IMG/VR virus record: IMGVR_UViG_3300025701_000006
Location: 1-64,000 of that record
Length of the DNA stretch: 64,000 bases
Source of the DNA: a virus
Reading direction: 5' to 3' (one strand)
Made by a program: the position numbers and the translations under genes. The notes under the pieces were generated by a model, which had not been told where the DNA came from, made no database searches, and was given only the letters and a program-made list of their open reading frames with translations. Position 1 is the first letter of the stretch. The number at the start of each line of letters is the position of its first letter. This document shows, piece after piece, positions 2,758 through 64,000 of the stretch.

Positions 2758-4059
2758 ATGAACATTCAAGAAGTTAAAGAGCTAATCGCAGCAGCTGACA
2801 TATGTGGACATGTGCCTCTTATCAAAGGTGTGCACGGTTTAGGTAAATCAGAATCAGCACACCAGTATGCAAAAGAAAACAACATGCATTTTGAACCTCT
2901 TATCCTTTCTTTAATGGATACAGGTGACATGCTAGGTTTGCCAGTAACTAGGGAAGTCAATGGTGTAATGTCTACGCAGTGGGCAGCACCTAGTTGGTAT
3001 ATCAATATCGTACAGGCAGCATGGCCTGCAGAACTAGATATTAGCAAACTAGAATTTACAGACAAAGACTTTCAAGAAAAAGCACTAAGAGTTATTTCTA
3101 ATCACAAACCTGTAACAACTAAGGTGCTAAATGATTACTACTGTAAATACTACAATGTTCCTAACGATAGACTACAACTATTACGTCAAAACAAAGTAAC
3201 TTACAAAGATAGCAAACGTTCGGTACTTTTTCTTGACGAGTTTAACCGTGCACCTGCAGACATCCTAAACGCTTCTCTACAGCTTATCTTAGACCACCGG
3301 CTACATACGCATGAATTGCCTATCGTAAACGGTCAGGAGACGCTTGTAGTAGCTGCTGTAAACCCTGCTGATGGTGATTACACCGTACAAGAGTTTGACC
3401 CAGCATTACTAGATCGTTTTGTAGATTGCGAAGTAACACCAGACTTTAAGTCTTGGCTTGCATGGGCTAAACAAAATAACATAAACCAAATGGTTGTAGA
3501 CTTTTTAGTAGATAACCAGTCTAAGTTTCATTTTAGTCCTAAAGATGGATCTAAAGGTACTTCTCCTCGTTCTTGGACAAGACTTGCTACATACATCGAT
3601 AACCTAAATTCTACACCAAAAGATATTATGCCACATTACTTAAAGGGCACTATTGGATCTAGTACTGCCGCACAGTTTATTATGTTTTATAATAACTATG
3701 GCAGCGGATTAACTATTAAACTACTAGAAAAGATGATTAAAGAGGAAATCACTAAACACAAAAAGACAAACCCAGAAGAAATTGCCGAGGCTGTTAAGCC
3801 CGCTGTAGAAAAACTAGAGGCAATTAGGATGATAGAATTTGCAGAAACTTTCGTAGAAAGTTATTTTGCAAAAACTACTACTAAAAATACGCTAGTGCCT
3901 ATTTCTTATTTGTATGCACTTCCTGTAGAATGCCTAGCTTCTGTGTTAAAAAGTCTGCAAACAAGTAACCCTAAAGCATATGCTAACCTAGCTTTAGCAG
4001 ACAAAACACATAACAACAAAAAACTATTTATGAAATTAGTATCACATCTTAAGGCATAA
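2758..4059 (+). CDS. MoxR-like AAA+ ATPase
   Basis: Walker A GVHGLGKS, Walker B LFLDEFNRA, DPALLDRF arginine finger, SPRSW; partner of the adjacent VWA gene. Confidence 0.88.
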   Translation: MNIQEVKELIAAADICGHVPLIKGVHGLGKSESAHQYAKENNMHFEPLILSLMDTGDMLGLPVTREVNGVMSTQWAAPSWYINIVQAAWPAELDISKLEFTDKDFQEKALRVISNHKPVTTKVLNDYYCKYYNVPNDRLQLLRQNKVTYKDSKRSVLFLDEFNRAPADILNASLQLILDHRLHTHELPIVNGQETLVVAAVNPADGDYTVQEFDPALLDRFVDCEVTPDFKSWLAWAKQNNINQMVVDFLVDNQSKFHFSPKDGSKGTSPRSWTRLATYIDNLNSTPKDIMPHYLKGTIGSSTAAQFIMFYNNYGSGLTIKLLEKMIKEEITKHKKTNPEEIAEAVKPAVEKLEAIRMIEFAETFVESYFAKTTTKNTLVPISYLYALPVECLASVLKSLQTSNPKAYANLALADKTHNNKKLFMKLVSHLKA

Positions 4060-25885: not shown

Positions 25886-26057
25886 GTCTATCTTCCAGGC
25901 TATCGGAATTGTTTTTGTGTGTGTGCTGTTAGTAGTACTAACTATTGCTACAATGTACTTAAGTTACATACTAGGCATAGGCTTCATGCTTATATGCCTA
26001 GTAGGTATTACTTATTACTTGCTAAGACTATTTAGTCCCAAAAACATCCATACCTAA
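25878..26057 (+). CDS. small 2-TM membrane protein (59 aa, TTG start, not in ORF track)
   Basis: AAGGA SD; MIKSIFQAIGIVFVCVLLVVLTIATMYLSYILGIGFMLICLVGITYYLLRLFSPKNIHT. Confidence 0.55.
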   Translation: MIKSIFQAIGIVFVCVLLVVLTIATMYLSYILGIGFMLICLVGITYYLLRLFSPKNIHT

Positions 26058-33200: not shown

Positions 33201-36200
33201 ACAGTTATACCTGCTATATCGTTACGAACCTCACTAACAGCTTTGTTGATACGATCTTTTGTAAGAGGAGAAAAAGAAGGCTCTTTACGCTCTGTAGTAG
33301 CCTCAGGAAACCCTTTTACTGCTCCTTCGTACTTTTCTACAAAAGCAGTTACTTCTTCTGTAAGAGCGTTATTAGTAAAGTTACCCTGACGTACCGGTCT
33401 ATCTTTCAGATGAATAAAGAAAGTTTTAGTTTCAATTTCTCTAACTTCTCCATCTTTAAATAACCTAGCTATGTCATTTGAACTAGGGCTAGTACTGTCC
33501 AATATTCCTTGTTCTTGTGCTATTAATACTGCCATGTTGCCAAGGTCAGCAAGTAATGCCTCGTACTCTGCTGAAGATGTAGTGCTGTTTTTCTTTTTAG
33601 ACAGACCAAGTTGCTTTAAGGTAGCTTTGCCCAAAGAGTTAGCTACAGTTTTAAGAAGTGCTCCGTTATCCCTAGCAAAATCACGCATTTCTTTAGTTAC
33701 TTCATGTGGCTGGAGGCCTAGCATGGTAGCTATATCTTCGTCAGACTTATAACCTCTAGACACCTTTGCTTTATCATTAGCAGCCATTTCGCCTATAGCT
33801 AGGTACATAGCAGCTAAAACTTCTTTGTTAGGTTTGCCTTTGTTGTTAAACACTAAACCTCTAGCAGGGGAGTTATGCAAAAACAAGTTACCAGGTAAGA
33901 ATTTACCATTTACTCTTATATCAGTTTGGTCTGATAGCTCTGCTTCACTAACTTTTGCTAAACTTTTATCTGCTGCAGTTACAAATTTATTTGCTGCTGT
34001 TTTTATGGCGTAAGGTAAGTTATCAAAAGATAGAGAATTAAGCACAGTAGTTTTGTCTGCTTTTACAAGCTTACCTGCATCCTGAACTACTTTTCTTGTA
34101 CCTAAGAATATATGTTCATTACCGTAGAATATAGTACCTCTACCTTTATTAGCGGCTTCATATCCTTCTATTGCTTTATCAGACAAAGGATCCCTAGATA
34201 GTTTTACTACAACTTCACCAGTCTTGGATTTTAAAAATAGTATCTCATACAGATCTTTTTTGTTTTTAGAAAAGGACTTCTCACCTAGTATACTGTTAAT
34301 AACCGATTTACTTGTATTGCCTATACTTTCTAATAACCTACTAACAGCTTTTTCTTTTTTATCAAAAGAAAGGTCTTGATCTATTATACCTTGCCAATCT
34401 TTTAAAGCTTGCTTACCTGCTTTTCCTTTTTCCTCTTGAGCTTCAATGTACTTGGTTACACCGGCCTCTAGCGCTTTATCTTTAAATGCGATTGGGTCTG
34501 GATCTGTAGCTCCAAGAACTGCTTCTGCTTCATTTTTTACATCGTCTATAAAACGACGTTCTAAAAAAGATGTTAGCCTATCACTTTTACTACTAAAGCT
34601 GTTGTCTTTTACTGTATCGAATAAAGTAGAATACTCTTTTTTAGCAGCAGCTTTGGCTTCATCAGTAAGGGCTTCGCCTGTAACAGAGTCGATAGATGTC
34701 TCTATAGATCTATAAAGAGTCACCAATGCCTCTTTGTTATCCTCACGAAACTGCGCAGCAGTATTGCTTTTCTCTAGTTTTTCTTTGTAATTACGTAAAG
34801 CTTTTTTATTATCCGCAGTTTCTTTAATTAAGATATGGCGAGACTTATCTTTTAGAATAGCGTAACCTTTATCCTTTATTTTTTTAAGCAACGCTTCTTT
34901 ACCTAGTGCTACTTCTTTGGTAAGTTTTCCTTGAACTAGGTCAGAGTCTAGTACAATAGTTGCTCCTGCTTCCATAGCAGCCACTAAGGAAGCTTCACCT
35001 TCTACACCTAAGTCAGGAACTTTAAAACCTTTTTTAATACTTTTAGTACCTACACTATTTATAAGTACTACGTCATCAGCAGAAAACTCTTCATTATTTA
35101 TTAAAAAACTATTAGATTTATAATAGTCACCTTTAAGAGCCCATTTAGCTGTAGTATCTTTTCCTAATATTACTTTGTTTACTTCAGATACTTTTTTGTT
35201 TAGGTCATTAAGAACTTTACTAACGCTACTTAAGTAACTGGTGTCTGCTTTACGTGCAGTTTTACTGCGTCCTTCTTTTACAGGTATAGTAATACTTCCA
35301 GACATAACAGAAATATCATCAGTTTTAAAACTAGCATTGCTGCTGATAGTCTGCATTTCTCTTTTTATATCTTTTAAGTATACAGATTTCCTAGCTATTA
35401 AATCTTTAGCACCCTTAATGTTAGGTACCATTTTACCGTTTTTAAACTCGACAGTAATTAGATAAGGGTCATCATACTTTTTAGTCTTATTATTGTACTT
35501 GTTGTACTCAGTTTTGACATATTGGGTTTTTTTAGACGTTAACGGTTTTTTATTTAAATCTGCTGCTACCCTTTTAGCTTCTTCTATACCTCTATTTAAA
35601 GATGTAACTGAAGCGCTAACAGAACTATTAATCCTAGATAAAGCTACCATTTCACTGTTTATAGCTTTTTTGTTGGGATTAGAGCTTTCTAGTAGCCCTT
35701 TAAGCCTAGATATCCTAGCTGCGTAGCCAGTACTTCCTTTAGTAGCTTCATCTTCGACCGTAGTATAACTTTTTACTAAACTGTCATAACGCTCTACACT
35801 TACATTGTTACGGGTAGCGAAGCTTTTCATTGTAGTAGTAAATGCTTCATCGTAAGACCTGCCACTACCTAGTAGTGTATTAACTATGCGCTCCGCGTCT
35901 ACACTACGAGTGTAATCTGTGTATTCCTTTTGCTCTTCATCAAGGTTAGGAGCTGACCCTAATACATTTCCACTTGTAGTAGTGCTATTTTCTACCGCAG
36001 TAAAATTCTCTATACTATTATTTCTAACAAAATCTTGAATAACATCATAAGTCTCTTCTAATGTCTGACTTGTTTTTCCGGTAAGTGCAGACTCTAAAGC
36101 AACTAATTCAGGAGCAACCGAATTTGGCTCTATAGAACTATTGCTGTAACTTCCTGATTTAAACGTTGATACTATGCTATCAAAAGCTTTTTCTGCGGTA

Positions 36201-38554
36201 ACATCATTACCGTCACCTAACACTTTTCCTAAATCTGTAATTGCGCTTTTAACGTTAGCAGGGACAGAATTAATAGTGTCTGCTTTAGTCTTTTCTTCTA
36301 GAGACTGTCGTATCGACTTACGAACTATTTTACCTGTAAGTTGGGTATTTTTGTTTTCACGAACAAACTGTTCAAGTCCGTCTAAAATTCTGTTGTATAC
36401 AGCTTCTCCAGCCTCTTTTTGTTCTTTAGGTGAAGAGTCAATAACGTATTTAGTAGCGTTAATTTCATCTATATCATCTAGTAAAGCACCTACATTGTTT
36501 GCGGTAACCCCTTCTTTAGCAGTAGTATTTGCCACTCTAGTTAATAAAGCTTTGTAAGCATTTTTGTCTGATACTATAGTATCTTCTGATAACGTTTCGT
36601 TAACGTCAGTATTAGGCAGTGTGCCTGGTACATTACCTTTAGCGGTGTTGCCAGTAATAGGCTGATTACCTTGCCCAAACATACCAAACCCAGTACGTAA
36701 AGAACCTACAGCCTCAAACTGCCCAGCACCACCTGCACCTAGTAAAGCAGCAATACCTGCTTCTGTTGTGTTTCTCTCATCTGTAATAAAGTCAGTAAAC
36801 GTTTCAACATCTTTAAATAGTTCTGTACCAAACCTAGTGTTAAATAGCTCCATCATTGTTTGTGAGTATTCTTGAGCAGCTTCTACTGTGGCTAATGCAC
36901 CTGACTTAATTACTCCTTTACCCATCATAAGAGTAGCATTTGCAAATTGTTTATTGGTTAGGTCTTTTATAGCAGGGGCTATAGAGGTAAGGATCCCTGG
37001 ATTCTTTATTATATTTATATTAACAAATTTATCTAGGTTCTGATTAAGCAGTTGTACACCTAAACTTCTTGCAAAGTAACTAGCTTTATCCTCACTATTT
37101 AATTCATTCCCATTATTATTCTTTACAAACTGTTCGTACTGATTGTTTACGTTACCTATAGCTGCTGTTAATTGTCCAGACTGGCTTACTAAAAGACTTT
37201 TAGCTCCATCTGTACTAGCCAGAGCTTTTAATTTTTCTGCTCTGCCTTGTCCCTTGGTGATTTTATTAGTATTTACAGCTTCTTCAATACTTTTAACAGT
37301 TTTACTATATTTTGTACCTGCACCTAGCAGGTTTAAAAACTTACCTGGACTAATCCAAGCTAAAAGAGCACCTAGGCTAGTCCCAAGCAATTCTGGGGTA
37401 GTGTAAATTTCTCCTAGTGCGCTAAACGCAGCACCTACTTTGTCTATCGTAGATGCTTCTTTATCTACCAATACGTCGTAGTAACCACCAACACTTTCGA
37501 CGGTTTCTTGTAGATTTTTTGGGTCATAACCAAAGAAACTGTTTACAGCAGAAGCTTTACTTTCTTGGTCACCAAGGTCATAAAGCCCTGTAAAGTCACC
37601 TAAAGCATCTAAAGGATTTACCGCTAGTTCAGACACAAAAGTAGCGCCAAAGCCTGAAAAAGCATTGCCAACTCTGTTTATGGCCTCTACAACCTTGTTT
37701 GTTTCCATAGTAGGTTCATAGTAACTAGGTTGCTTAAGGTCTGAAGCGTCTGTACTTTCTACAGGTTCAGCACCTCCTCCTTTAACTATTGCCATAGCTT
37801 TATTAAAACCAGCAATGACTTTTTCTTTATCTACTTTTTCAATATCATACGACTGGTTAGCCAAAGATTCTCTATTTATGTAGTACTCACTAGAGCCACT
37901 ACCAAACAGTGCATCTTTTTCTTCTTTGGTTATTGTACGAATACCTTGAGGAGAGTTATAATCGTATAGACCATCTTTTCTGCCTCTAATAACTCTGTTA
38001 TTAAAGTTATTTAAATTTGTGTGGTTTAAGCTTTCAAAAGCCTGTGCGGCGTATTTTTGAAGGTTGTCATCATACCTTTTATCATTTACATCAACACCAG
38101 CGGTACCTGAGCTCCACCCTTGTTCTTTTCCTGCTCTGATTAAGCCTTCTTCTTCCGCTTTCCCAGGAATGTAACGATAGTCAGATGAATTAAACCTGCC
38201 AGAAGATAAGCCAAGCTTTACAGGATCGTAGTTTTCTGGAGTAAAAGCCTGCGCAGGATCTATTGCTTTGCCTTCTTCTTTTACACCGTACATATAAGAT
38301 CTACGGTCATTTCGACTAGAGTCTGGTAAAGAATACCCTTCCCTAACTAAGTCATTTAAAAACCCCATTTCATCTTTAGACCAGTCTTCAGAAATACCCC
38401 AAATCTTGTTCCCATTATTTTCTATGTACCCATCACCTAGGTCCGTGTAAGTACTAGAATCAAGAGACTCAGAGGCATAACTACGCTCTGATAGATTTGC
38501 AATTTTTTCTTCTTTGCTCTTAGAAATACGGGAGAGTTTATCGGTAAATGACAT
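30266..38554 (-). CDS. N4-like virion RNA polymerase (N-terminal plus polymerase domains), 2762 aa
   Basis: NNRFML...PQTDKLHR, motif A LEFDSLTSG (~32342-32380), motif B RALFKDPFMIFNY (~31910-31948), motif C LIHDAI (~31085-31105); ATG 38554 has an AAGGA SD. Confidence 0.88.
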   Translation of the reverse strand: MSFTDKLSRISKSKEEKIANLSERSYASESLDSSTYTDLGDGYIENNGNKIWGISEDWSKDEMGFLNDLVREGYSLPDSSRNDRRSYMYGVKEEGKAIDPAQAFTPENYDPVKLGLSSGRFNSSDYRYIPGKAEEEGLIRAGKEQGWSSGTAGVDVNDKRYDDNLQKYAAQAFESLNHTNLNNFNNRVIRGRKDGLYDYNSPQGIRTITKEEKDALFGSGSSEYYINRESLANQSYDIEKVDKEKVIAGFNKAMAIVKGGGAEPVESTDASDLKQPSYYEPTMETNKVVEAINRVGNAFSGFGATFVSELAVNPLDALGDFTGLYDLGDQESKASAVNSFFGYDPKNLQETVESVGGYYDVLVDKEASTIDKVGAAFSALGEIYTTPELLGTSLGALLAWISPGKFLNLLGAGTKYSKTVKSIEEAVNTNKITKGQGRAEKLKALASTDGAKSLLVSQSGQLTAAIGNVNNQYEQFVKNNNGNELNSEDKASYFARSLGVQLLNQNLDKFVNINIIKNPGILTSIAPAIKDLTNKQFANATLMMGKGVIKSGALATVEAAQEYSQTMMELFNTRFGTELFKDVETFTDFITDERNTTEAGIAALLGAGGAGQFEAVGSLRTGFGMFGQGNQPITGNTAKGNVPGTLPNTDVNETLSEDTIVSDKNAYKALLTRVANTTAKEGVTANNVGALLDDIDEINATKYVIDSSPKEQKEAGEAVYNRILDGLEQFVRENKNTQLTGKIVRKSIRQSLEEKTKADTINSVPANVKSAITDLGKVLGDGNDVTAEKAFDSIVSTFKSGSYSNSSIEPNSVAPELVALESALTGKTSQTLEETYDVIQDFVRNNSIENFTAVENSTTTSGNVLGSAPNLDEEQKEYTDYTRSVDAERIVNTLLGSGRSYDEAFTTTMKSFATRNNVSVERYDSLVKSYTTVEDEATKGSTGYAARISRLKGLLESSNPNKKAINSEMVALSRINSSVSASVTSLNRGIEEAKRVAADLNKKPLTSKKTQYVKTEYNKYNNKTKKYDDPYLITVEFKNGKMVPNIKGAKDLIARKSVYLKDIKREMQTISSNASFKTDDISVMSGSITIPVKEGRSKTARKADTSYLSSVSKVLNDLNKKVSEVNKVILGKDTTAKWALKGDYYKSNSFLINNEEFSADDVVLINSVGTKSIKKGFKVPDLGVEGEASLVAAMEAGATIVLDSDLVQGKLTKEVALGKEALLKKIKDKGYAILKDKSRHILIKETADNKKALRNYKEKLEKSNTAAQFREDNKEALVTLYRSIETSIDSVTGEALTDEAKAAAKKEYSTLFDTVKDNSFSSKSDRLTSFLERRFIDDVKNEAEAVLGATDPDPIAFKDKALEAGVTKYIEAQEEKGKAGKQALKDWQGIIDQDLSFDKKEKAVSRLLESIGNTSKSVINSILGEKSFSKNKKDLYEILFLKSKTGEVVVKLSRDPLSDKAIEGYEAANKGRGTIFYGNEHIFLGTRKVVQDAGKLVKADKTTVLNSLSFDNLPYAIKTAANKFVTAADKSLAKVSEAELSDQTDIRVNGKFLPGNLFLHNSPARGLVFNNKGKPNKEVLAAMYLAIGEMAANDKAKVSRGYKSDEDIATMLGLQPHEVTKEMRDFARDNGALLKTVANSLGKATLKQLGLSKKKNSTTSSAEYEALLADLGNMAVLIAQEQGILDSTSPSSNDIARLFKDGEVREIETKTFFIHLKDRPVRQGNFTNNALTEEVTAFVEKYEGAVKGFPEATTERKEPSFSPLTKDRINKAVSEVRNDIAGITVPEEAKETMKLAMETEYGIDVNLVDEFLEAVDADESNIKTLLGFIDLTSDKFDSLFYDEKEVQEAKNRDIEKSIDELRLLREKMDRVGNLDPSMHYPYFYASNNRFMLDSNTTQPQTDKLHRFFIVPKLHRLTYDVNTNTEGGLEFNVEGVSDPLDADQSFTVRLALGQALGKGVDKMDVKDIIDYGNAVLSMNKAEIAEAKKSIMSTGKFTIETLNTEVTGDANTDSSSDADPADMKGIEYELEAEHLSHALQALDFLEKVQDALTGNGKVTSALSLEFDSLTSGFANKIQQMPILDDMHSHFARVGIITKSYQDVLLQSSFKGDGIPFDPSQGMSAADILAAGKKGEIGFLDSYENMATDTITLVNEEVTSGSTSLTVSRGEGRSGSKVFEAIKQLLPGGETIGSSGVASSIDKKLRALFKDPFMIFNYSASVGRIVKNLSISVAKDIAKGIATSDFENDLTAKETAEKLLAAGGEFLYPKSDKKIKNILELQQALKDFRLKDIKLKVPLVISQTRKGTNTARNLEQLLEFTVSATYGEAVKTVFETNFKPFIKVQNAINDGFKVAFRIFDKKRVDKLKDIQKRNPNNVVTLEDHAKVLEELWDDFPYLVGPLTGAKEKKAVIAVVTTSTRSPNEIELSRKKPQTMLGEGKNTKTRTVTPLVRYLEEAISSGSVLPFHAIDGAEISLMMNDLQLRALTLIHDAIIAPLNQSDNAGFAYQKGMETINSEGNPSDINSKKNYVLAEALQEFANRLEKTISSTTFSKDFEKVTALGLKAADPKVKEAFPALAKSVLGNLKTEISGIKKARELWYGENGLMEGAYYGNLVGTPGAVYQKGMTSADLSYKNALKNMYKAVKLDVPVDRSAEKAAELKKVFEAAPRALLKELNKRLGVDNVNADNVIEDIIQNPEKADKLIAYYNNRKTKITNKTVVEAINKVIDGLSMVKSSVQSKIVDELSSVSDVDSLVSALEKIEGCK

Positions 38555-38584
38555 TAAAAAATCCTTAGTAGGTAATCTACAGGT

Positions 38585-38595
38585 ATTATAACACA
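38585..38595 (-). promoter_or_regulatory. extended -10 promoter for the vRNAP gene
   Basis: TGTGTTATAAT (TGnTATAAT) directly after a terminator. Confidence 0.6.
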
Positions 38596-38631
38596 AAAAC
38601 CCCCTAGTTCCATATAGAGACTAAGGGGTTT
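38595..38631 (-). terminator. intrinsic terminator after the gp51-like gene
   Basis: CCCCTTAGT...ACTAGGGGG followed by TTTTT on the - strand. Confidence 0.65.
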
Positions 38632-38649
38632 AGCAAACAGCAAATTTAG

Positions 38650-40713
38650 TTACCTAATATTACCGGACGCTAAAGACTGTGCACGAGTAGGAGGACCAAC
38701 AATAGGACTAGCATTAGAAGTCCTACGGACTAGTGCAGGTATCTCAAAAGTGGCCTCTTGCTGACGGGCTGTTCTAGCCGCTGCTTGTGCCGGAGTAGGA
38801 GGTCCGTAAGTATTACCCCCCTTAGCCCCTGTTCTATTAAACGCTCTATTACGACTAGCAGTATTTAGTTTAGCCCGTAACCCACCAATAAAACTACTAA
38901 TAGCCGCAGGATTTTTAAAACCGTTATAAAGGCCCATAAAACCGTTAAATGCTTTACGACCCCCATATACGTTCATAATGGGAGTACTCAGAACTAATGC
39001 TTGTTCCTCTTCTGTAGGAAGTGTAAGTTCATATCTACTTCCATCAGCGAAAACAGGATCAATATTACCTGATTGTACATCAGCTACTATTTTTTCAATT
39101 CTGTCTTTAGTTAATGGCTGTTCAGTACCATATGTCATGTTTAAAGCATCTATATTTTCTTTAACTGATAAATCTGTACTTCCGGCAACATTGGCAAACT
39201 CGTATAGATTAGCTAAAGCGTCTCTATCAGAATTAGGTCTGATGCTTAAATCACTTAAAGTTGTAAGATTATTAGGTTTTGTCGGTTTTACGTTTGAAAG
39301 TATCTGTTTAAGCTCTAAAGCGTTAACTACAGCAGTATCAGGATTTTTTCCTTGTTGTACTGCTTCTTGGCGTGTTTTAGTGATTTCCGCTGGAGTAAGA
39401 ACTGCCTCCCTGTTTTTAGGAGTAGGTAAAGAAGCATCCACAGTAGATGAACCACTATCAGTAGATTCTGAAGTTGTAGGCACTCTTATAGGAAATCCTA
39501 GTGCTTGAGGCATTAAGTCTCTTAAACCACCAGTAAACGCAGCCCTATTAGTGTTTACGTAATCAGGTGCAGCTACTACCTCAGGCATAAAACTATCAAC
39601 AAGCTCTTCACGAGTAAGCTCACCGTTTGAATTTTCTAGTTTTTGTATGCCTTTAGCAAAAGATGTAAAAGCATCCGAGCTGCCTTTCGGACTCTTAAAA
39701 AAGCCTACTGAAACAAAGTCTTTTAAAGAATTTTTTGCAATAGATGGGTTTACGCCTGCGTTTACAGCGTCTTTATACATGTTTAAAAGTGTAATATCAT
39801 CAAGAGGACCTGCATCAATTTCTTCTGCAATGTAATTACTTACATCTAGTTCACTTGTTTTTTTATCTCCAAATTTATTTTCTTTTGATTTATTAGCATT
39901 CCATACTTTAAAAGATATATCTGCAAGCTTATTAGCTTGCGTTTGTTGAGCCTTTTGCGCAGCAACAGCTAGTTTTGTCAAATTTGCCGTACTTTCATAC
40001 CCCATAGACAATTTATCAGCAGTAGTACTGGCTACTTGAGGAGATACCCCTTTAGAAAGTAAATCGTTATAGATTCTAATATTTTCATTTTCACGATACA
40101 CAGGCTTATTTGATACTACGTAGTTATCAAACTCTTTATTAAAATTAGCTAGTTGCTCATTAAAACTGGTATAGTCTTCTTTTGATATTTCACCGTTTTT
40201 GTAGTAATCCTGAATAGCTGCTAACGGATCTTCAGGCAAGTCTGCTTGAGTAGGAGAAAAATCTTCTCCATCATCTCCAAACATGCCGCGTATTGCCTTT
40301 AATTCATTACTATTGTTAATCTGATTAATAAAGAAGTTGTTTGCAAGAGTTTTTGCACCTTCAGCTCTACCTTGTTCAAGAATAGTTTTAAGCTCAATGT
40401 CATTATCTATTGCTGCATTTGCCGCACTTTTTCTGTCAAACATGCTCAGGTTACTAAGTGCTGCTCTTTCTGCTTGTTCTCCAGCTAGTTTAGCATTGTA
40501 CATGTCAGTTTGTCGCTTATCTAAACGCTTTTGTCTAGCTATTTCATCATTATACCTAGTAGTTTGACGCTGTTCTAAAAGGTTTTGACGGCTAAGTTGG
40601 TCTTGATACCGTTTTTCGTCAGCTTCTCTGTCTTTTCTTTGGTTGCCTTGCTTCCTATAACCACTAGCTATATCACTAAGAAGGCGACTGGTCGATTCAA
40701 AAGGGTCTATCAT
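38650..40713 (-). CDS. internal virion/ejection protein (N4 gp51 position)
   Basis: 687 aa, no Cys, coiled-coil N-terminus, synteny with N4. Confidence 0.55.
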   Translation of the reverse strand: MIDPFESTSRLLSDIASGYRKQGNQRKDREADEKRYQDQLSRQNLLEQRQTTRYNDEIARQKRLDKRQTDMYNAKLAGEQAERAALSNLSMFDRKSAANAAIDNDIELKTILEQGRAEGAKTLANNFFINQINNSNELKAIRGMFGDDGEDFSPTQADLPEDPLAAIQDYYKNGEISKEDYTSFNEQLANFNKEFDNYVVSNKPVYRENENIRIYNDLLSKGVSPQVASTTADKLSMGYESTANLTKLAVAAQKAQQTQANKLADISFKVWNANKSKENKFGDKKTSELDVSNYIAEEIDAGPLDDITLLNMYKDAVNAGVNPSIAKNSLKDFVSVGFFKSPKGSSDAFTSFAKGIQKLENSNGELTREELVDSFMPEVVAAPDYVNTNRAAFTGGLRDLMPQALGFPIRVPTTSESTDSGSSTVDASLPTPKNREAVLTPAEITKTRQEAVQQGKNPDTAVVNALELKQILSNVKPTKPNNLTTLSDLSIRPNSDRDALANLYEFANVAGSTDLSVKENIDALNMTYGTEQPLTKDRIEKIVADVQSGNIDPVFADGSRYELTLPTEEEQALVLSTPIMNVYGGRKAFNGFMGLYNGFKNPAAISSFIGGLRAKLNTASRNRAFNRTGAKGGNTYGPPTPAQAAARTARQQEATFEIPALVRRTSNASPIVGPPTRAQSLASGNIR

Positions 40714-57488: not shown

Positions 57489-58631
57489 TTATGCAGAAGC
57501 AGAAACTAGGATCTTAAGCAACTTCTCTTCTTCAAGGATAATACCTGCGTAGAAGAAGTTGTAAGAGAAGAAACCGTTAGTACCGTACGGGTTAGCATTC
57601 TCTACAGACTCTGGAGACTTAGAGTTAAACTTGATTTTGCCCTGACCTTTAAGACCAACAGTTGCAAAACAACCTTGAGTTGGGAATAAGATAGGGAACA
57701 CATCGAAGTTACTACCAGTAGTAGATAAACCACCAGTGTGACCAGTAGAATCTGCGCCTTGACCTGCATATACAACTGCAGACTCAGACTCGATGAAACG
57801 CACTTCGTGCATTGCACCAACTTCACCTTCAGCTAAAGTAGTAGCAGAACCATACTTGTGTGCTGGGATGTAGACAAACTCAGTTGCACCGTTGTCAGCA
57901 ACAGTACCACGAGTAAGAGTTTCTAAATCGCCTTTAACATTAGCGCCGATAACAGCGTAGAACGCTTTAGCTACTGTGTTAGTATCGATTTTAGTAGAAC
58001 CAGTTACTAGTTGAGTGTTTTTCTGTGCACGGTTGCGAACTAGTTTACGAACAGCCTTACGGATAAGGTCATAAGAAACAGTAGAGTCAGCATCGATCTC
58101 ACCAATTGCAGTTGCATCACCAGCGTACATTACGGTAGGAGTAGCAAGCATGTCTAATTGAAGTAAATCTTCCATACGAGAGTTTGCTAATTCACCTAAC
58201 TCTTCACGGTAGCGTACTTGGATAGCATCTTCAGAGAATAACTCTACTTCATCAGTATAGTCAATCATCTCGCCGTAACGAGCTAAAGAAGTTTCCATTG
58301 TAACTTTCTGTAAAGATTTTTTGTTAACCGCACCAGCGCCTTCAGCTAAAGTAGCAGAAGTTAACGCAGTGTTTACATCGTCGATGTCACGAGCTGATAA
58401 AAAGCCTTTTTCAGCGAACGCGGCATCAGAGATAGCACGGTCATACATGTGTAAGAACTTAGAGATCTTAAAAGTCTTACCCATTTTAGTAGGCATAGAT
58501 TTGCGATCTGCGAATTGACCGTAGACGTTAGTGCGGTTAGCCGCTTTAACACCTGCACGATCATAAAAATGAACGATAGTATTAGCACCCGCTGTGCTAT
58601 TTGTACCGTTACCATAAACATTAGTAGCCAT
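57489..58631 (-). CDS. N4-like major capsid protein (gp56 family)
   Basis: MPTKMGKTFK, LAEGAGAVN, YGEMIDYTDE, KYGSATTLAEGEVG, FDVFPIL, NPYGTNG; GAGGA SD before MATNVY. Confidence 0.92.
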   Translation of the reverse strand: MATNVYGNGTNSTAGANTIVHFYDRAGVKAANRTNVYGQFADRKSMPTKMGKTFKISKFLHMYDRAISDAAFAEKGFLSARDIDDVNTALTSATLAEGAGAVNKKSLQKVTMETSLARYGEMIDYTDEVELFSEDAIQVRYREELGELANSRMEDLLQLDMLATPTVMYAGDATAIGEIDADSTVSYDLIRKAVRKLVRNRAQKNTQLVTGSTKIDTNTVAKAFYAVIGANVKGDLETLTRGTVADNGATEFVYIPAHKYGSATTLAEGEVGAMHEVRFIESESAVVYAGQGADSTGHTGGLSTTGSNFDVFPILFPTQGCFATVGLKGQGKIKFNSKSPESVENANPYGTNGFFSYNFFYAGIILEEEKLLKILVSASA

Positions 58632-58689: not shown

Positions 58690-59901
58690 TTAAATATCGT
58701 TCTGTAGTTTTGTATACCACTCATCAAAGTCAACATCTGACGCATCTAAGTAATCAACTACATCCCGACTTGCTACTGCATTCTTTGTAGGTGCAGCGGC
58801 TTTGCGCTTTGCAGAGGCTTTAGTTGTAGCTGTACGCTGTTGCGACTTAGCTTTTACGTGAGCTAGGCGGGCTTGTTCTGCCTCCCTGGTCTCTAGTTCC
58901 GCTTGTCTTGCAGCTCTACGCTCCGATAAAGCATCTTGCTCTGCGACTTGAGTAAAGTGCTGTTGCGCAGCCTCTTTATAATAATCTAAATCAGATTTTT
59001 TACCGCCATCATAGACTTTTAGCTTTTCTGCTACTGGCTGTAACGTTTGAAACATGCCAGATTTAACGTCTGTGTGTAGTAACCTAATCATCTCAGGGTT
59101 CTGTGTCATGGTTCCCCATGAAGCATCATCCCATTCTTTAGATAGAATATTATGAGTCGTTGCATACTCTTGGTCTCGGCTAATATCGTCAACGATATCT
59201 TTAATTGCCAAGGCACTGTCATCGCGACCATAATCCTTAGCTACATAGGGGTCATTGTCATCTGCATCTAAGTCGAGGGTATCAGTACCTGTTCGCTTTA
59301 ATACTTCTGCAATTGCGCCTTTGTCGCCCTTCAGTACATCAATCATTAGACTCACGTCTTCATGCTTTAAGTCTGCACCTTCTATAGCATCAATAGTCTT
59401 ACGCCAAGGTTTGATGGTTTGCATCTTTTTGGTGTAGTCCATTGCTTGACCAAAGATTTTAGGGAATTGATCTACGATCTCTTCACTAGAAAACTCATAG
59501 TCTTTGCCGTTGGCTTTAAACTTATAGTTTTGTACTGGTTGCTCTTCCTCGTCTTCATCTTCAGCGTCATCAGAACTAAATTCTTCATCTTCATCAGAGT
59601 CCTCGTCAGGAGCCTCGTCATCAGTTTCGGAATCGTCTTCTTCTTCAGCTTCGTCTGTGTCAGATTCGTCGCTAGTATCATGGCCGGAGTCCTCAAGGTC
59701 ATCTTCAGGTTGCTCAGGACCATCGTCAAATTCTTCTTCAGCAGGTTCCTCTTCATAAAGGTCTGCATCTTCATTAAATTCTTCTTCAGGCATTTCTGCC
59801 TCTAAATCTGTATCTGGGGATTCTTGATTTGCTTGCGCTTCTTTAAAAGCTGCTTCAAGCTCATCATCAGACATATCCCATAAATCTGCTTCGCTACTCA
59901 T
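58690..59901 (-). CDS. N4 gp57-like protein (acidic, probable scaffold)
   Basis: MSDDEL, long D/E tract, FKANGK...MDYTKKMQTIKP, KRKAAAPTK. Confidence 0.8.
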   Translation of the reverse strand: MSSEADLWDMSDDELEAAFKEAQANQESPDTDLEAEMPEEEFNEDADLYEEEPAEEEFDDGPEQPEDDLEDSGHDTSDESDTDEAEEEDDSETDDEAPDEDSDEDEEFSSDDAEDEDEEEQPVQNYKFKANGKDYEFSSEEIVDQFPKIFGQAMDYTKKMQTIKPWRKTIDAIEGADLKHEDVSLMIDVLKGDKGAIAEVLKRTGTDTLDLDADDNDPYVAKDYGRDDSALAIKDIVDDISRDQEYATTHNILSKEWDDASWGTMTQNPEMIRLLHTDVKSGMFQTLQPVAEKLKVYDGGKKSDLDYYKEAAQQHFTQVAEQDALSERRAARQAELETREAEQARLAHVKAKSQQRTATTKASAKRKAAAPTKNAVASRDVVDYLDASDVDFDEWYTKLQNDI

Positions 59902-59916
59902 GGTCTACCCCTCCAG

Positions 59917-60216
59917 TTATTCGACGTCGTCGTCTTCATCTGTAGGCATAGTACCTAAATTTTCAATAGTGACAAAAAAGTCTTCTAAGCTAGATATGGC
60001 GATTAGGTCTTCCATAACAGCAGTTCTGTGGCCACCTGCAACAATTGCATCTTGTGCCAATAAACTAACGCCGTTAACAGCCTTATCTTTAAAGTAACCT
60101 TCTAGAACTACTCGCTGAAAATCTTTATTTTCTTTTAAGCGTTCTAAAGAACTCCACATATCCGCCCAATAACGGTTTTCTACTTCTAAAAGTTGCTGAT
60201 CATTAAGGTTGTTCAT
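59917..60216 (-). CDS. N4 gp58-like protein
   Basis: LERLKENKDFQRVVLEGYFKD; synteny. Confidence 0.75.
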   Translation of the reverse strand: MNNLNDQQLLEVENRYWADMWSSLERLKENKDFQRVVLEGYFKDKAVNGVSLLAQDAIVAGGHRTAVMEDLIAISSLEDFFVTIENLGTMPTDEDDDVE

Positions 60217-60319: not shown

Positions 60320-60493
60320 TTACTTAGCGCAACCCCCGGAACACCCGCATTTCTTTTTCTTTCTTGGGGTACCAGGAGATTTACTAGAACATCCGCAACT
60401 AGAAGCTTTCTTTTTCTTGCCTGCATAATAGTGTTTAGTGTTTTGGCCTTGGCCATCCCCATACACCATTTGCTGTGCTAGTCCTTGTTCCAT
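60320..60493 (-). CDS. small Lys/Cys-rich protein (57 aa, not in ORF track)
   Basis: MEQGLAQQMVYGDGQGQNTKHYYAGKKKKASSCGCSSKSPGTPRKKKKCGCSGGCAK; AAGGA SD. Confidence 0.7.
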   Translation of the reverse strand: MEQGLAQQMVYGDGQGQNTKHYYAGKKKKASSCGCSSKSPGTPRKKKKCGCSGGCAK

Positions 60494-60495
60494 TA

Positions 60496-60927
60496 CTATT
60501 GTCCTTTAAGATATGTAGCTAAACCTGCATCTACTGGTTTACTTGGCTGTGAAGCCCTATCTATTAAAATTCTTTCTAAATTATCGGCTGTATTACGTTC
60601 AGGTGCAGGTATTTTATACACTTCTTCACCTTTTCCCCAAAAAGGGCTTTTACCTTGAGCTATGCGCTCTCTAGCGTGCAGTATAGCTTTTTTTACTATA
60701 GTGTTTGATGGATCATTACCACTTCGTAAATAATCTAATTCTACTCTAGTTAGCGTAGGTACTACTGAAGGTATTTCCACTTCTCCTGAGCCAAGATCTA
60801 CACCCACAGAAAATTCTGTCATGTCTCTATTGGTTCCGTCTAAAGTCTTAAAGGCCCCAAAAAACCCTGTAGACTTAGAAGTACCATTTTTTCTTAAGCT
60901 ATTGTCTTTAGCTTTAGATTGTTCCAT
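60496..60927 (-). CDS. hypothetical protein
   Basis: 143 aa: GFFG...MTEFSVG...EIPSVVPTL...HARERIAQGKSPF. Confidence 0.7.
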   Translation of the reverse strand: MEQSKAKDNSLRKNGTSKSTGFFGAFKTLDGTNRDMTEFSVGVDLGSGEVEIPSVVPTLTRVELDYLRSGNDPSNTIVKKAILHARERIAQGKSPFWGKGEEVYKIPAPERNTADNLERILIDRASQPSKPVDAGLATYLKGQ

Positions 60928-60929
60928 TA

Positions 60930-61058
60930 CTAGTAACCACCGCCACTAGGAGAAGTCTTAGCTACTTCTTTTTTAGCCATAGGTTTCTTATCCTTAGCTA
61001 GGCATCTACCTTTTTGGATACACGCTTTAACAGTTTTACAGCCTTTACATGGAGTCAT
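60930..61058 (-). CDS. small basic 4-Cys protein (42 aa, not in ORF track)
   Basis: MTPCKGCKTVKACIQKGRCLAKDKKPMAKKEVAKTSPSGGGY; AGGA SD. Confidence 0.6.
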   Translation of the reverse strand: MTPCKGCKTVKACIQKGRCLAKDKKPMAKKEVAKTSPSGGGY

Positions 61059-61085
61059 TTTACTTTCCTATATTTAAAGTTATTG

Positions 61086-61814
61086 TTAACGGCCTTTACG
61101 CATTAAAGGGCCATATCTATCTACAGGTTTTTTAGTCTTAGGTACTTCACTAATACTTTCTGCTAATCCCGGCTCACTAGGTAAATCAGTAATTGTGACT
61201 CTTCCTGAAGGGACTCTACTTTTGGTTATATCTTCTGTAGTCGGTTTAGGTGCTTTTGCTTTTTTACTTACATCAGGCCCTTTTACATTTTTATCTGTAT
61301 TTTTATTAACCGCTCTAGAAGCTTTCTTATCATTAGTATCAAACTCTCCTGAAGAAAGCTCTTTTTTACTGATACTTTTATAAGGATTTTTATTGTTTCC
61401 TTTACCGATAGAGATCTTCTGTCCTGCTTTAATATCATTGGAGTTGCTGATACCTGTATTCATTTCCATTATCGTATTAACAGATGTACCAAAACGTTTA
61501 GCAACTTCAGATAATGTATCGCCACTTTTTATGGTATATGGTTTAGTAGAACTAGGTTTTTTAGCTGCAGGCTCTTTTTTCTTTTTCTTAGGCATCATTC
61601 TACGAGGAGTAGAGTTAGGGTTTCTAGCAGCTACTACTCTTTTTTCTTTCTTCTTTTCTTCTTTTTCAGGGGCTGATAGGTTAAGCACAGCACCTATACG
61701 TATTTTATCAGGGTTAGTGATACTAGGGTTCATAGAAAGCAAAGCTTTTAAACTAAGACCTTTTCTTTTAGCAATTTGCGACAATGTGTCGCCTTTTTTG
61801 ATTGTATAACGCAT
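61086..61814 (-). CDS. basic protein with two LysM domains
   Basis: YTIKKGDTLSQIAKR...IRIGAVL and YTIKSGDTLSEVAKR...IKAGQKI. Confidence 0.88.
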   Translation of the reverse strand: MRYTIKKGDTLSQIAKRKGLSLKALLSMNPSITNPDKIRIGAVLNLSAPEKEEKKKEKRVVAARNPNSTPRRMMPKKKKKEPAAKKPSSTKPYTIKSGDTLSEVAKRFGTSVNTIMEMNTGISNSNDIKAGQKISIGKGNNKNPYKSISKKELSSGEFDTNDKKASRAVNKNTDKNVKGPDVSKKAKAPKPTTEDITKSRVPSGRVTITDLPSEPGLAESISEVPKTKKPVDRYGPLMRKGR

Positions 61815-61834
61815 TTTAATACCTTAAATATTAG

Positions 61835-62080
61835 TTAGGATTCTCTAGTTACTTTTGCTTTCTTAGTGTTACTTACAAACTGTTCTTTGCCGCCTTTAGC
61901 ACCAGCTTTTTTCTTTTTAGCTGTAGCAGCTCTTTCAGACTTGCTGAGGCTCTCTGCTTTCTTTCTAGGTAAGCATCTATCAGGGTTCTTCTTGTTTTTA
62001 GATGTACCACAAGCTCCTGCAATGTTTCCACTGGAGTTAATGCGTACCCAATCTTCAGACAACCATGCAGCTAGGCTCAT
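61835..62080 (-). CDS. small basic protein (DUF5872-like)
   Basis: LAAWLSEDWV...CG...RCLP...ERAAT.KKK...QFVSN. Confidence 0.7.
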   Translation of the reverse strand: MSLAAWLSEDWVRINSSGNIAGACGTSKNKKNPDRCLPRKKAESLSKSERAATAKKKKAGAKGGKEQFVSNTKKAKVTRES

Positions 62081-62262
62081 TTTGTTTTCTTCCCTTTACT
62101 GCCTTTGGCGTAGTTTGGATCTTTACAATACTTAGAAGCCGCTAGGTTTGCATACGCACTAGGGTACTTATCAAAAGTACGCTTAGCCCAAGATATACCA
62201 GCAGCACAAATCTTGTTGCTTTTTTCTTTTTTGCCAATAGTTTCTGCTAGACCTTTAGCCAT
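62077..62262 (-). CDS. small basic protein
   Basis: MAKGLAETI...AKRTFDKYPSAYAN; TAATG-coupled start. Confidence 0.7.
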   Translation of the reverse strand: MAKGLAETIGKKEKSNKICAAGISWAKRTFDKYPSAYANLAASKYCKDPNYAKGSKGKKTK

Positions 62263-62528
62263 TACCATTTCGCCTTGTCAGCCCAGTACGCTGCAGACAT
62301 CTTGCCTTTCGCAATATTCTTAGCGTGGCGTGCTTTAAAAGATTTTCTACGTTTACGTGCAGCCTCTGACTCGCCATCTTTTTTAGGTGAGCCACTAACA
62401 CCTTGTTGTCCAAAACGTATAGTTTTTTTCTTGCCGCCTTCACACGCTTTAACTACGTGTGATTTAGTCTTATGGCTAGGTGTACGTTTTGGTGAGTTAC
62501 ACGCTAGTTCTTCAGCTAGTCCAGACAT
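62262..62528 (-). CDS. small basic protein (DUF6321-like)
   Basis: KSHVVKA...IRFGQQG...RRKSFKARH...SAAYWADKAKW. Confidence 0.75.
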   Translation of the reverse strand: MSGLAEELACNSPKRTPSHKTKSHVVKACEGGKKKTIRFGQQGVSGSPKKDGESEAARKRRKSFKARHAKNIAKGKMSAAYWADKAKW

Positions 62529-62537
62529 ACCTACTCC

Positions 62538-62711
62538 TTATTTCATTTTTGCTTTACCTACGTTTAACGCAAGTAAATCAACAATTTTGTAAAGTTTAGC
62601 TACAACTTTGTCATCTTTTGGTGTATCTGTAAGAGAAGCAATTGTAGAAGCAATAGCCACTGCTAAAGTGACATAATTTACCCAGTCCAGTACTGTACTA
62701 ATAATATCCAT
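62538..62711 (-). CDS. small hydrophobic protein, holin-like (57 aa, not in ORF track)
   Basis: MDIISTVLDWVNYVTLAVAIASTIASLTDTPKDDKVVAKLYKIVDLLALNVGKAKMK. Confidence 0.7.
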   Translation of the reverse strand: MDIISTVLDWVNYVTLAVAIASTIASLTDTPKDDKVVAKLYKIVDLLALNVGKAKMK

Positions 62712-62720
62712 AACTAGGTG

Positions 62721-62993
62721 CTACATCATAGATTGCGCTAAGCCTTGAGGGGCTTGCTGCATAGGTTGTGCTGCTTGTTGTTGACCTTGAGCTGCTAGTT
62801 GTTGCTCTAGCATATCAATAGCCGCCATAATAAGTTCAGGGGGTATGCCTTGCTGGATTAGCTCTTCTGGGTCAACTCCTTGCATAAGCATTGCAATAAT
62901 CTGTTCGATCATAGCCATCTGTTCTTGACCACCACCTTGTGGGGCCATTTGTTGTGCAGGAGCACCTGCCATTTGTTGTGCTAAGCCTTCCAT
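62721..62993 (-). CDS. Gln/Met/Ala-rich small protein
   Basis: 90 aa, TAATG-coupled; helical core LMQGVDPEELIQQGIPPELI. Confidence 0.7.
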   Translation of the reverse strand: MEGLAQQMAGAPAQQMAPQGGGQEQMAMIEQIIAMLMQGVDPEELIQQGIPPELIMAAIDMLEQQLAAQGQQQAAQPMQQAPQGLAQSMM

Positions 62994-63466
62994 TATTTGT
63001 ATCCTTGTAGAGTTCTGTCCGCTTCTTGAGCTGCCTTGTTTACTTTATCTTGTTCTGCTAAGAGCTCTCTTTCAGCAAATGCAGATAGTTTCGGTGTTTC
63101 TTTTGAAGGGGCAAACAGGTTACCTACAAGCCCTTTTACTTTATCGTAAATACCAGGGCCAGTATTTTGATTCTTCAAAGATTGTGAGTAGTTTGCAGCA
63201 GCCATGTCTGCATCCGTAGCCCCGCCGTCAGCCATATACCTAGTTTCCTGCAAGAACTCAGCACTATCAATTCCTGTGTAAGGGCTGTAAGGAGTTCTAG
63301 CCCTATCACGAAGTAAACTGTCAATAACAGCTTGATTGCGCGCTCTTTCTTCTAAAGCAGCTGCGTTAGTTAAAGCTGCTATAGTATCATCTGCCTGCCG
63401 GGCTCGAAAAGCTTTTAGCTCTTCTTTATCCATAGCATTCTGCTTAGAACGTTCAATATAACTCAT
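62993..63466 (-). CDS. hypothetical protein
   Basis: 157 aa, TAATG-coupled to the portal stop. Confidence 0.7.
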   Translation of the reverse strand: MSYIERSKQNAMDKEELKAFRARQADDTIAALTNAAALEERARNQAVIDSLLRDRARTPYSPYTGIDSAEFLQETRYMADGGATDADMAAANYSQSLKNQNTGPGIYDKVKGLVGNLFAPSKETPKLSAFAERELLAEQDKVNKAAQEADRTLQGYK

Positions 63467-64000
63467 TACATAACTCCAATATTTTTATCGCCAGCTAGTC
63501 GCTGAGCCATCATTTGTTCAAGGTTAGCACGATGCTTAGCCATTTCTGCTTCCATCTTTTGTGCATGCTTAAGGTCTTCAATCTCTACTTTTTCTAGATG
63601 TGAAAATCCTTCGTCTTCTTTAATAAACCTAAGGTCAGTCATATCAGCTTCACTAGTTAGCTTACGTGCTTTAGCTGCTTCTACTGCTGCTTTGTTACGT
63701 TTAAGCTCTGCATCAATAGTATTCTCTTGAGCACGGGCATTCTTATCAGCAATGTCAGCTTTAAGTTTTTCGTTCTCTAGCACTAAACGCTCTAGTTCTA
63801 GCTGCTTAAGCTGTTCTTGTACAGGATCTTGCGGTGCCTGGTAATCACGAATACGCTTAGCTTGATCCGGCATACGCATAAGTTCCATAATATCTGCCAT
63901 AAGAGTACGACGAATTACAGGATCTTCATTAGGACCTAAGGTCTGTAACAAAAACGATAACTCTTGCGACTTAGCCGCATTGTCTTCTGCAGTAGAAATA
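63466..64000 (-). CDS. N4-like portal protein, C-terminal part (5' end outside the window)
   Basis: Frame open to the window edge: ISTAEDNAAKSQELSFLLQTLGPN...LMRMPD...DPVQEQLKQLELE. Confidence 0.85.
   Translation of the reverse strand, partial: ISTAEDNAAKSQELSFLLQTLGPNEDPVIRRTLMADIMELMRMPDQAKRIRDYQAPQDPVQEQLKQLELERLVLENEKLKADIADKNARAQENTIDAELKRNKAAVEAAKARKLTSEADMTDLRFIKEDEGFSHLEKVEIEDLKHAQKMEAEMAKHRANLEQMMAQRLAGDKNIGVM

Follow-up and report, generated by a model that had tools for sequence, protein, structure and literature searches.

The internal proteins of phage T4 form a highly diverse set that has only a capsid-targeting sequence (CTS) in common, and the CTS directs encapsidation via the scaffolding core (PMC3012670). 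Protein classes such as ADP-ribosyltransferases (ARTs), cell-wall hydrolases and LysM proteins are known to be packaged and to act at entry (PMC5512222), and capsid targeting sequences are mentioned for the Dar antirestriction proteins of phage P1 (PMC9024508). In phages N4 and DEV, the ejection proteins gp50 (the virion RNA polymerase, vRNAP), gp51 and gp52 travel in the head and are released from it upon infection (PMC13434306, PMC10925440). Here we describe a short peptide with the core G-L-A, called the tag below, on six small proteins encoded beside the portal gene of IMG/VR virus record IMGVR_UViG_3300025701_000006. The 64-kb window analysed is the first part of this 78,327-bp record. 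With its portal, tail genes and virion RNA polymerase, the source is an N4-like phage and not an encapsulin-type shell without portal, terminase or DNA packaging.

An initial annotation had placed seven occurrences of the motif GLA[QET]x[MIL] next to the portal gene. All seven are present where they had been positioned. In a six-frame scan of the whole record exactly these seven sites were returned, all within 60467-62987 on the minus strand and in six real open reading frames (ORFs), with no match to GLA[QET].[MIL] anywhere else in the 78,327 bp. The sites are:

62970-62987, minus strand: GLAQQM, residues 3-8 of the 90-residue Gln-rich protein (62721-62993), called QRICH below.
62727-62744, minus strand: GLAQSM, in the same 90-residue protein, one residue ahead of the stop.
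62505-62522, minus strand: GLAEEL, residues 3-8 of the 88-residue protein p88 (62262-62528).
62236-62253, minus strand: GLAETI, in p63, whose ORF starts either at 62268 (MVMAKGLA) or at 62262 (MAKGLA).
61152-61169, minus strand: GLAESI, in the LysM protein (61086-61814), 24 residues from the C-terminus.
60508-60525, minus strand: GLATYL, in the 143-residue protein p143 (60496-60927), with the stop six residues further on.
60467-60484, minus strand: GLAQQM, residues 4-9 of the 57-residue protein p57C (60320-60493).

The claim that the motif always lies near a terminus was right for the other copies, but the LysM copy is in the tail and not at the very end. From the composition of the 24,699-residue proteome, 0.28 copies would be expected (Poisson P = 2e-8), and when the residues of the interval proteins were shuffled 10,000 times, seven copies were never reached, the maximum being two. 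The codons for Gly, Leu and Ala are not the same from copy to copy, indicating that the conserved object is the peptide and not a DNA element; a DNA-level repeat or regulatory element is thereby ruled out. Shine-Dalgarno sequences lie upstream of all four genes with an N-terminal tag.

The carriers were said to be otherwise dissimilar, and indeed the six have no common family and no similarity outside the tag. They are 42-242 residues long and single-domain or domain-less, not large fusion polypeptides of the MuF type, and none matches the T4 internal-protein families in Pfam or PHROG. The description 'mostly very basic' applies to five of them, with isoelectric points (pI) of 8.9-10.4, but not to QRICH, which is acidic (pI 4.1). 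The gp58-like protein (pI 4.2) and the gp57-like presumed scaffold (pI 4.1) are acidic as well, a contrast in charge to the basic cargo that we count in favour of the docking signal proposed below. Outside the interval and beyond the end of the window, the gene of a 302-residue signal-peptide protein (record 68103-69011, minus strand) follows the lysis genes, in a series of genes for secreted proteins; its product contains GLAQQV 15 residues before the C-terminal end. This is probably a coincidence: the protein is secreted, its gene is outside the interval, and V occupies the last position.

Related loci were collected to see the tag in its genomic setting. We retrieved 58 IMG/VR loci with the gp58-like protein as anchor, and 42 further metagenome loci came from an alignment of QRICH (A2, narrower than the alignment A1 described below). 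The resulting set of about 100 related loci, which represent a clade of marine N4-like phages, has a common backbone of portal, p157, QRICH, zero to eight variable genes, gp58-like protein, gp57-like protein and major capsid protein (MCP). In the window this late head operon, of which the tag locus is part, is laid out as follows:

63466-64000, minus strand: 3' part of the portal gene (full gene 63466-65457), homologue of the AD45-P1 'N4 gp59-like' portal; the protein ends ...GDKNIGVM.
62993-63466, minus strand: p157, 157-residue coiled-coil-like backbone protein directly after the portal; untagged here, with GLV at residues 111-113.
62721-62993, minus strand: QRICH, 90-residue Gln-rich backbone protein (phrog_22442) with a tag at each terminus, Q/A/P-rich linkers and a conserved three-helix core.
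62538-62711, minus strand: untagged 57-residue predicted membrane protein (phrog_9685), in only two loci.
62262-62528, minus strand: p88, 88-residue basic protein with N-terminal MSGLAEEL (phrog_7595, aligned from residue 8 on).
62077-62268, minus strand: p63, 63-residue basic protein with N-terminal (MV)MAKGLAETI (phrog_27331, aligned from residue 18 on).
61835-62080, minus strand: p81, untagged 81-residue basic protein starting MSLAAWL (phrog_23735).
61086-61814, minus strand: LysM protein, 242 residues, with two Pfam LysM domains (E = 3e-31), basic disordered linkers and the tag in its C-terminal tail.
60930-61058, minus strand: p42, 42-residue Cys-rich basic protein, untagged here (ORF).
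60496-60927, minus strand: p143, 143 residues, with C-terminal GLATYL on a flexible tail (HMMER, AF2).
60320-60493, minus strand: p57C, 57-residue Cys-rich and Lys-rich protein with N-terminal MEQGLAQQM (from related loci).
59917-60216, minus strand: gp58-like acidic backbone protein, 99 residues (phrog_26806, E = 1e-40), at the downstream edge of the variable interval.
58690-59901, minus strand: N4 gp57-like protein, 403 residues, with a very acidic N-terminal third (phrog_2120, E = 3e-84; 'N4 gp57-like' in AD45-P1).
57489-58631, minus strand: MCP (phrog_1357, E = 1e-91), 90% identical to the AD45 MCP.

The genes at 62538-62711, 61835-62080, 60930-61058 and 62993-63466 (the last for the 157-residue protein) are thus untagged within the same stretch, and the MSLAAWL start of p81 is possibly a degenerate tag. 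The MCP gene lies 2-5 kb from the tagged genes. Giant genes of the virion RNA polymerase type occupy 26-38.5 kb, completing an N4-like layout with the portal, gp58-like, gp57-like and MCP genes. Among named phages the closest are the Alteromonas podoviruses vB_AmaP_AD45-P1 to P4, with genomes of 100 kb, which share the 90% identical MCP; nucleotide similarity to them is confined to the MCP and gp57-like region.

The gp57-like protein is presumed from its position to be the scaffold. In PHROGs and GenBank it bears the label 'tail length tape measure protein'. A scaffolding role accords better with its position and with the strong acidity of its N-terminal third, and the label looks like a propagated misannotation. 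The AD45-P1 MCP (L001, NC_021532, 9234-10378) is annotated as two coding sequences, gp009 and gp010, and its tblastn match is in two pieces, pointing to a frameshift or a sequencing error in NC_021532.

Across 59 loci, GLA within about 12 residues of a terminus was found in 89 of 191 interval proteins and in 4 of 578 others (Fisher P ~1e-56). The density of GLA was 8.3 per 1000 residues in the interval and 0.17 elsewhere. The check proposed with the first description, motif enrichment, thus came out at about 50-fold over other proteins, and within the record at seven copies in the interval against zero elsewhere. The tag is found on at least 18 unrelated families, in which it is placed at the N- or C-terminus or in a disordered extension. 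When terminal 4-mers common to two or more ORFs per locus were scanned for without bias, QGLA, GLAQ, GLAE and EQGL came out on top, and the same scan of 80 unrelated control loci gave no comparable shared 4-mers. The consensus is [EQ]-x-G-L-A-[QEA]-[QST]-[ML]-[AVG], usually 2-3 residues past the Met at the N-terminus or 5-6 residues ahead of the stop at the C-terminus. The fourth position varies widely, with Q, E, A, G, H, S, N, T or M. The motif as first written holds as a shared peptide, but only G-L-(A/S) is its invariant core, the seven-residue pattern as a whole not being invariant. L and M/L are spaced i/i+4, as would suit a short amphipathic helix. A literature search found no description of the motif or the locus in Schitoviridae.

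QRICH is present in about 50 loci. In alignment A1 (38 diverse sequences, down to 32% identity) a centre of about 40 residues and the G-L near each terminus are conserved, G-L being invariant or nearly so at both ends, and the Q/A/P-rich linkers vary freely in length and sequence. A distant subclade (L037-L053) has G-L-S in place of G-L-A at both QRICH termini, so the two ends change together. In the AlphaFold2 (AF2) model, residues 22-74 form a three-helix core (pLDDT 85-94), the linkers are disordered and each tag is a short helix (pLDDT ~58). A fold search of the Protein Data Bank (PDB) with the core gave no match below E = 1, and a protein atlas search returned viral hypothetical proteins only. 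QRICH keeps both tags even in loci without any variable genes. Its presence where cargo is absent marks it as machinery, and it is a conserved core component rather than cargo. The two motifs first noted in this protein are there, one at each end, but it does not belong among the cargoes with which it had been grouped, being a backbone gene that is present even without them.

The other backbone proteins carry related signatures. The coiled-coil-like p157, which has no Pfam or PHROG match, occupies the post-portal position in 29 related loci, and in distant clades its C-terminus reads G-L-A/S-x-x-L. Nearly all loci with QRICH and p157 have a portal C-terminus ...G-D-x-N-I-G-V (63466-63480 in the window; portals L002-L057), an ending that is not found in portals of QRICH-less loci, N4 or Alteromonas phage PT11-V19; these co-occurrences are confounded by phylogeny. 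In QRICH-less loci the gp58 gene directly follows the portal gene, with zero interval genes (L043, L055, L056, L058, PT11-V19 and N4). That N4 has no genes between portal and gp58 had been stated at the outset and is correct, as N4 gp58 abuts the portal gene. In one QRICH-less locus, L043, the portal itself ends ...KEGLAKSGGKK, a single case which suggests that the motif has a partner with which the portal region, too, has to make contact. The AD45 phages encode p157 (gp014), QRICH (gp013) and a p57C orthologue that is untagged, and are without the 2.4-kb set of extra genes.

Within the variable families the tag comes and goes independently of the domain behind it. The p88 family has more than 8000 homologues, in which the conserved domain begins CN[KS]PKRTP. 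Of the 120 best matches, 48 begin M-x-G-L-A-E-x-L and the others have unrelated prefixes despite 80-87% identity in the domain. In tblastn searches of p88 against 43 isolate phages (SIO1, cobaviruses, CRP roseophages and cyanophages) the alignment begins only at residues 5-11, past the tag. For p63, the sole homologue among isolates, in phage C75C1, begins MAQKRKGNKIC and is without the KGLAETIG insertion. A HMMER search with p143 against 1.8e9 representatives gave 1865 matches to a domain spanning residues 7-107, mostly embedded in proteins of 400-2900 residues; the tagged C-terminal tail is kept in 1 of 150 representatives, the 87%-identical orthologue. AF2 modelled residues 10-125 of p143 confidently and the tail at a pLDDT of ~52. 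The expectation that homologues in unrelated phages would be tagless therefore holds for the p88, p63 and p143 families outside the clade.

Gain and loss are also seen inside the related loci. Dps-like/DUF5856 proteins have the tag on an N-terminal extension in L033 and L044 and none in L023 and L035. A 143-residue member of the p81 family in L003 has a C-terminal GLAETM, and the p42 orthologues in L004 and L015 have GLAGKM near the C-terminus. Among 21 interval loci with p57C, 17 have the N-terminal tag, and the AD45-P1 orthologue is untagged (MEQVSAF...). Comparison of p143 with an N-tagged 115-residue protein of L012 (E = 0.05) and a C-tagged 167-residue protein of L010 (E = 0.6), as a candidate for one family with tags at opposite ends, was not significant and was rejected.

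Some further observations concern these families. The p88 homologues in L060-L139 have many subfamily-specific N-terminal prefixes ahead of the domain, for example KDSRLERAGVSGYN, ITYRGEQFEGYN and RYYKSGGRVDKKSMACN. In these 80 diverse phage loci none of the prefixes is shared with neighbouring genes, which gives no ground for regarding the other p88 prefixes as tags. In C75C1, an unrelated 39-kb phage (L186:2993-3410, OQ984151), the p63 and p81 families are encoded next to each other, with a head-closure gene downstream of them. The p63 homologue of C75C1 is ORF 3007-3174, the reading frame of the deposited CDS0044 being wrong. Matches of p143 in BFVD include a 999-residue phage protein with an LT_GEWL domain, and the p143-domain protein P0124 also matches a PHROG 'DNA ejection' family. 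A PDB fold search with p143 gave nothing below E = 1, and the large p143-domain proteins gave no Pfam matches. Distant p143-domain proteins from other sources (P0186, P0221, P0256 and P0267) include some that begin MAGLA..., MAGLIQDQMQAP... or MAGLID..., resembling the tag and the N-terminus of QRICH.

The identity of the tagged proteins bears on their function. An ART-PolyVal ADP-ribosyltransferase (PF18760; L023:1275-1862, E = 9e-20) has the N-terminus MGLASML, and a SleB-type cell-wall hydrolase (Hydrolase_2; L008:4084-4755, E = 7e-25) has the tag in its disordered N-terminal part. Both genes, which belong to the polyvalent repertoire, lie between the portal and gp58-like genes. The tags are outside the folded domains, which begin at residue 32 in the ART, 110 in the hydrolase and 22-45 in the Dps-like proteins. 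Of the other products of this interval, HNH and GIY-YIG homing endonucleases, membrane proteins, a lipoprotein/papain-like cluster and a 980-residue fibre-like protein have no tag, as would be expected of a packaging label. The HNH and GIY-YIG genes have been inserted repeatedly between portal and gp58 (L002:4633-5115, L007, L008, L023:2678-3229, L176:34-645 and L178:4598-5464), and these insertions may help to explain the high gene turnover of the interval.

Taken together, we consider it fairly probable that the tag is a modular docking signal, used first by the portal-adjacent backbone proteins and then copied by incoming genes as a means of incorporation into the procapsid and exit with the DNA. 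In the proposed mechanism, G-L-A-x-x-(M/L) would be a short linear docking motif forming a short amphipathic helix in flexible termini. Its primary carriers would be the backbone proteins after the portal, the bivalent QRICH plus, in some clades, the coiled-coil p157. Variable small proteins would have acquired the same motif, would bind the same site in the head-assembly machinery and would become part of the procapsid, probably close to the portal or the scaffold. Candidates for the receptor include, besides the acidic gp57-like presumed scaffold and the gp58-like protein, the MCP on its inner face, the portal and the QRICH three-helix core. The cargo (basic small proteins, LysM protein, cell-wall hydrolase, ADP-ribosyltransferase and Dps-like protein) would leave with the DNA at infection. 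Binding, packaging, ejection and the tag staying uncleaved are steps that we infer. The capsid-targeting or docking signal originally suggested thus stands as far as modular docking goes, on the enrichment, the terminal conservation, the at least 18 families, the tagless outside homologues, the kinds of enzyme that are tagged and the untagged selfish and membrane genes, but its receptor, and the head interior as the destination of tagged proteins, we infer.

A more specific form of the same proposal is possible, though we hold it only tentatively. Loading would resemble that of encapsulins, with an uncleaved, position-independent peptide of 6-8 residues being read by a conserved site of the head-assembly machinery. 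A multivalent network with bivalent QRICH as its hub, at the portal or scaffold, would recruit exchangeable effectors that are injected with the DNA, and to turn a gene arriving in the interval into one for virion cargo, G-L-A-x-x-M at one end of its product would suffice.

Several observations weigh against a docking signal for head cargo. The tag is not universal in the locus, as interval proteins such as p81 and p42 here, and f42 and f90, are untagged. The virion RNA polymerase and ejection homologues (26028-40713) have no GLA motif; since the vRNAP is necessarily packaged, the tag is not a general packaging route. The AF2 model of QRICH does not dock its own tags on its own core. In addition, the loci counted are related, so that the events are not independent, and ORF starts were called mechanically. 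A literature search for virion proteomes of the AD45 phages, or of the cobaviruses, which encode a p88 homologue, found none.

The alternative that survives best is that the motif is an assembly contact and not a cargo address. QRICH and p157 would tie the portal to the scaffold or capsid at nucleation, and the other tagged proteins would be minor structural or assembly accessories that remain in the particle or disappear with the scaffold and are not injected. This would account for the conservation of doubly tagged QRICH in loci without variable genes, for the motif on p157 in distant clades, for the GLA motif at the portal end of L043, which is without QRICH and p157, and for the co-occurrence of the portal GDxNIGV ending with QRICH and p157. 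However, tagged enzymes that act on the host (ART-PolyVal, cell-wall hydrolase and LysM protein) make poor assembly factors, and the hypervariable content of the interval is typical of host-interaction genes. As a full explanation we regard this contact as unlikely; as the origin of the tag it is compatible with the docking signal.

We consider it less likely still that the motif binds outside the virion, to a host factor (a chaperone, protease adaptor, or membrane or cell-wall component) or to a phage regulator, and so coordinates the stability, timing or localisation of late proteins. Short terminal peptides are typical recognition signals of AAA+ proteases and chaperones, and no receptor was found among the head proteins. 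Yet the motif is confined to the head-gene interval, with terminal GLA in only 4 of the 578 proteins outside it, and the gene that mainly carries it belongs to the backbone, between portal and MCP. The motif varies along with clade and not with any known host signal, and selfish and membrane genes of the same operon are untagged.

An exterior position, in which the tag would anchor decoration proteins or adhesins to the outside of the capsid or neck, for example a displayed LysM protein binding glycans, strikes us as improbable. LysM domains do bind peptidoglycan and chitin-type glycans, and phage capsids can display accessory adhesion domains, but the carriers are mostly tiny, very basic and Cys-containing. 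Moreover, an ADP-ribosyltransferase and a cell-wall hydrolase act inside the host or in its envelope, and the p143 domain also occurs in 'DNA ejection' and LT-containing proteins.

Even less can be said for a maturation protease site, at which the terminal peptides would be removed as at the L/I-x-E sites of T4 gp21. GLAE and GLAQ superficially resemble L-x-E, and the T4 targeting sequences are removed by the prohead protease. However, no Peptidase_S77/S78 prohead protease was found in the record, whose completeness is about 75% (CheckV), and the fourth position, as noted above, is highly variable. The N-terminal copies are only 2-3 residues from the Met, so cleavage would remove almost nothing, and we are aware of no account of N4-like phages maturing their heads by proteolysis. 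The protease recognition site named as an alternative in the initial annotation is weakened accordingly, and we regard it as very unlikely. Finally, chance, paralogy or a recombination scar at gene boundaries, to which the shortness of the motif, the adjacency of the genes and the ~40 nt between the C-terminal tag of QRICH and the N-terminal tag of the next gene might point, is effectively refuted by the record scan, the shuffles and the enrichment in the interval, by the differing codons, by the dissimilarity of the carriers outside the tag, and by conservation over deep divergence (QRICH down to 32% identity).

If the tag is a packaging address, the interval is a previously unrecognised internal-protein locus in N4-like phages, whose head cargo known so far consists only of the vRNAP and two ejection proteins (PMC13434306). 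It would give a simple rule predicting which uncharacterised marine phage proteins enter the host right as infection begins, and with it candidate anti-defence or takeover effectors such as the tagged ADP-ribosyltransferase. It would also provide a minimal peptide with which foreign proteins could be loaded into a podovirus capsid, from either terminus and apparently without need of a protease. Cultured relatives are at hand in the Alteromonas AD45 phages, which carry the Gln-rich protein. A comparison with the T4 CTS and the encapsulin peptides is the natural one to make, and it bears on how HK97-fold shells select protein cargo.

The internal-protein locus of T4 (CTS/IPI, IPII and IPIII) and the hyperplastic internal-protein locus of the T-even phages resemble the present locus in having hypervariable, small, mostly basic, unrelated late-region proteins with a short terminal peptide. 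Plausible anti-host effectors are among the members of both loci. In T4 the CTS, of about 10 residues, is confined to the N-terminus and is removed by the gp21 prohead protease. The tag has another sequence, occurs at either terminus or in an internal disordered stretch, and is found in an N4-like podovirus; no prohead protease was found here, and the fourth position is not a conserved E. A bivalent backbone protein carries the same motif here, and packaging, which is known for T4, is for this locus suggested by analogy.

The Dar system of P1 is like the present proposal in that accessory anti-host proteins are packaged into the head via a terminal targeting region, which in the Dar proteins is at the N-terminus. 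It differs in phage type, and in that its signals are longer, protein-specific and helper-dependent and not one short motif across families. The MuF/SPP1 gp7 fusions and the polyvalent proteins share with our locus enzymatic effectors (ARTs and hydrolases), which they deliver through the virion, and genes directly after the portal (PMC5512222), and the tagged ART-PolyVal domain of L023 belongs to the polyvalent-protein repertoire. Unlike the tag, a peptide of 6-8 residues on small single-domain proteins, theirs is a folded carrier domain in one large polypeptide, and the MuF domain PF04233 had no match in the record. The N4/DEV ejection proteins come from the same phage family, but all three are large and conserved and have their genes in another part of the genome, and their homologues here are tagless.

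The encapsulin cargo peptides, finally, are short peptides on flexible extensions of diverse cargo, including ferritin/Dps-like proteins, with genes beside that of an HK97-fold shell, as they are here. Like the tag, they occur at either terminus and are apparently uncleaved. Their consensus is a GSL-type motif, different from the tag. Encapsulins are DNA-free compartments without a portal, in which the receptor is a pocket of the inner shell, and no homology is implied. By analogy, the tag would appear nearer to the encapsulin cargo peptides than to the T4 CTS in being uncleaved, position-independent and present on Dps-like cargo.

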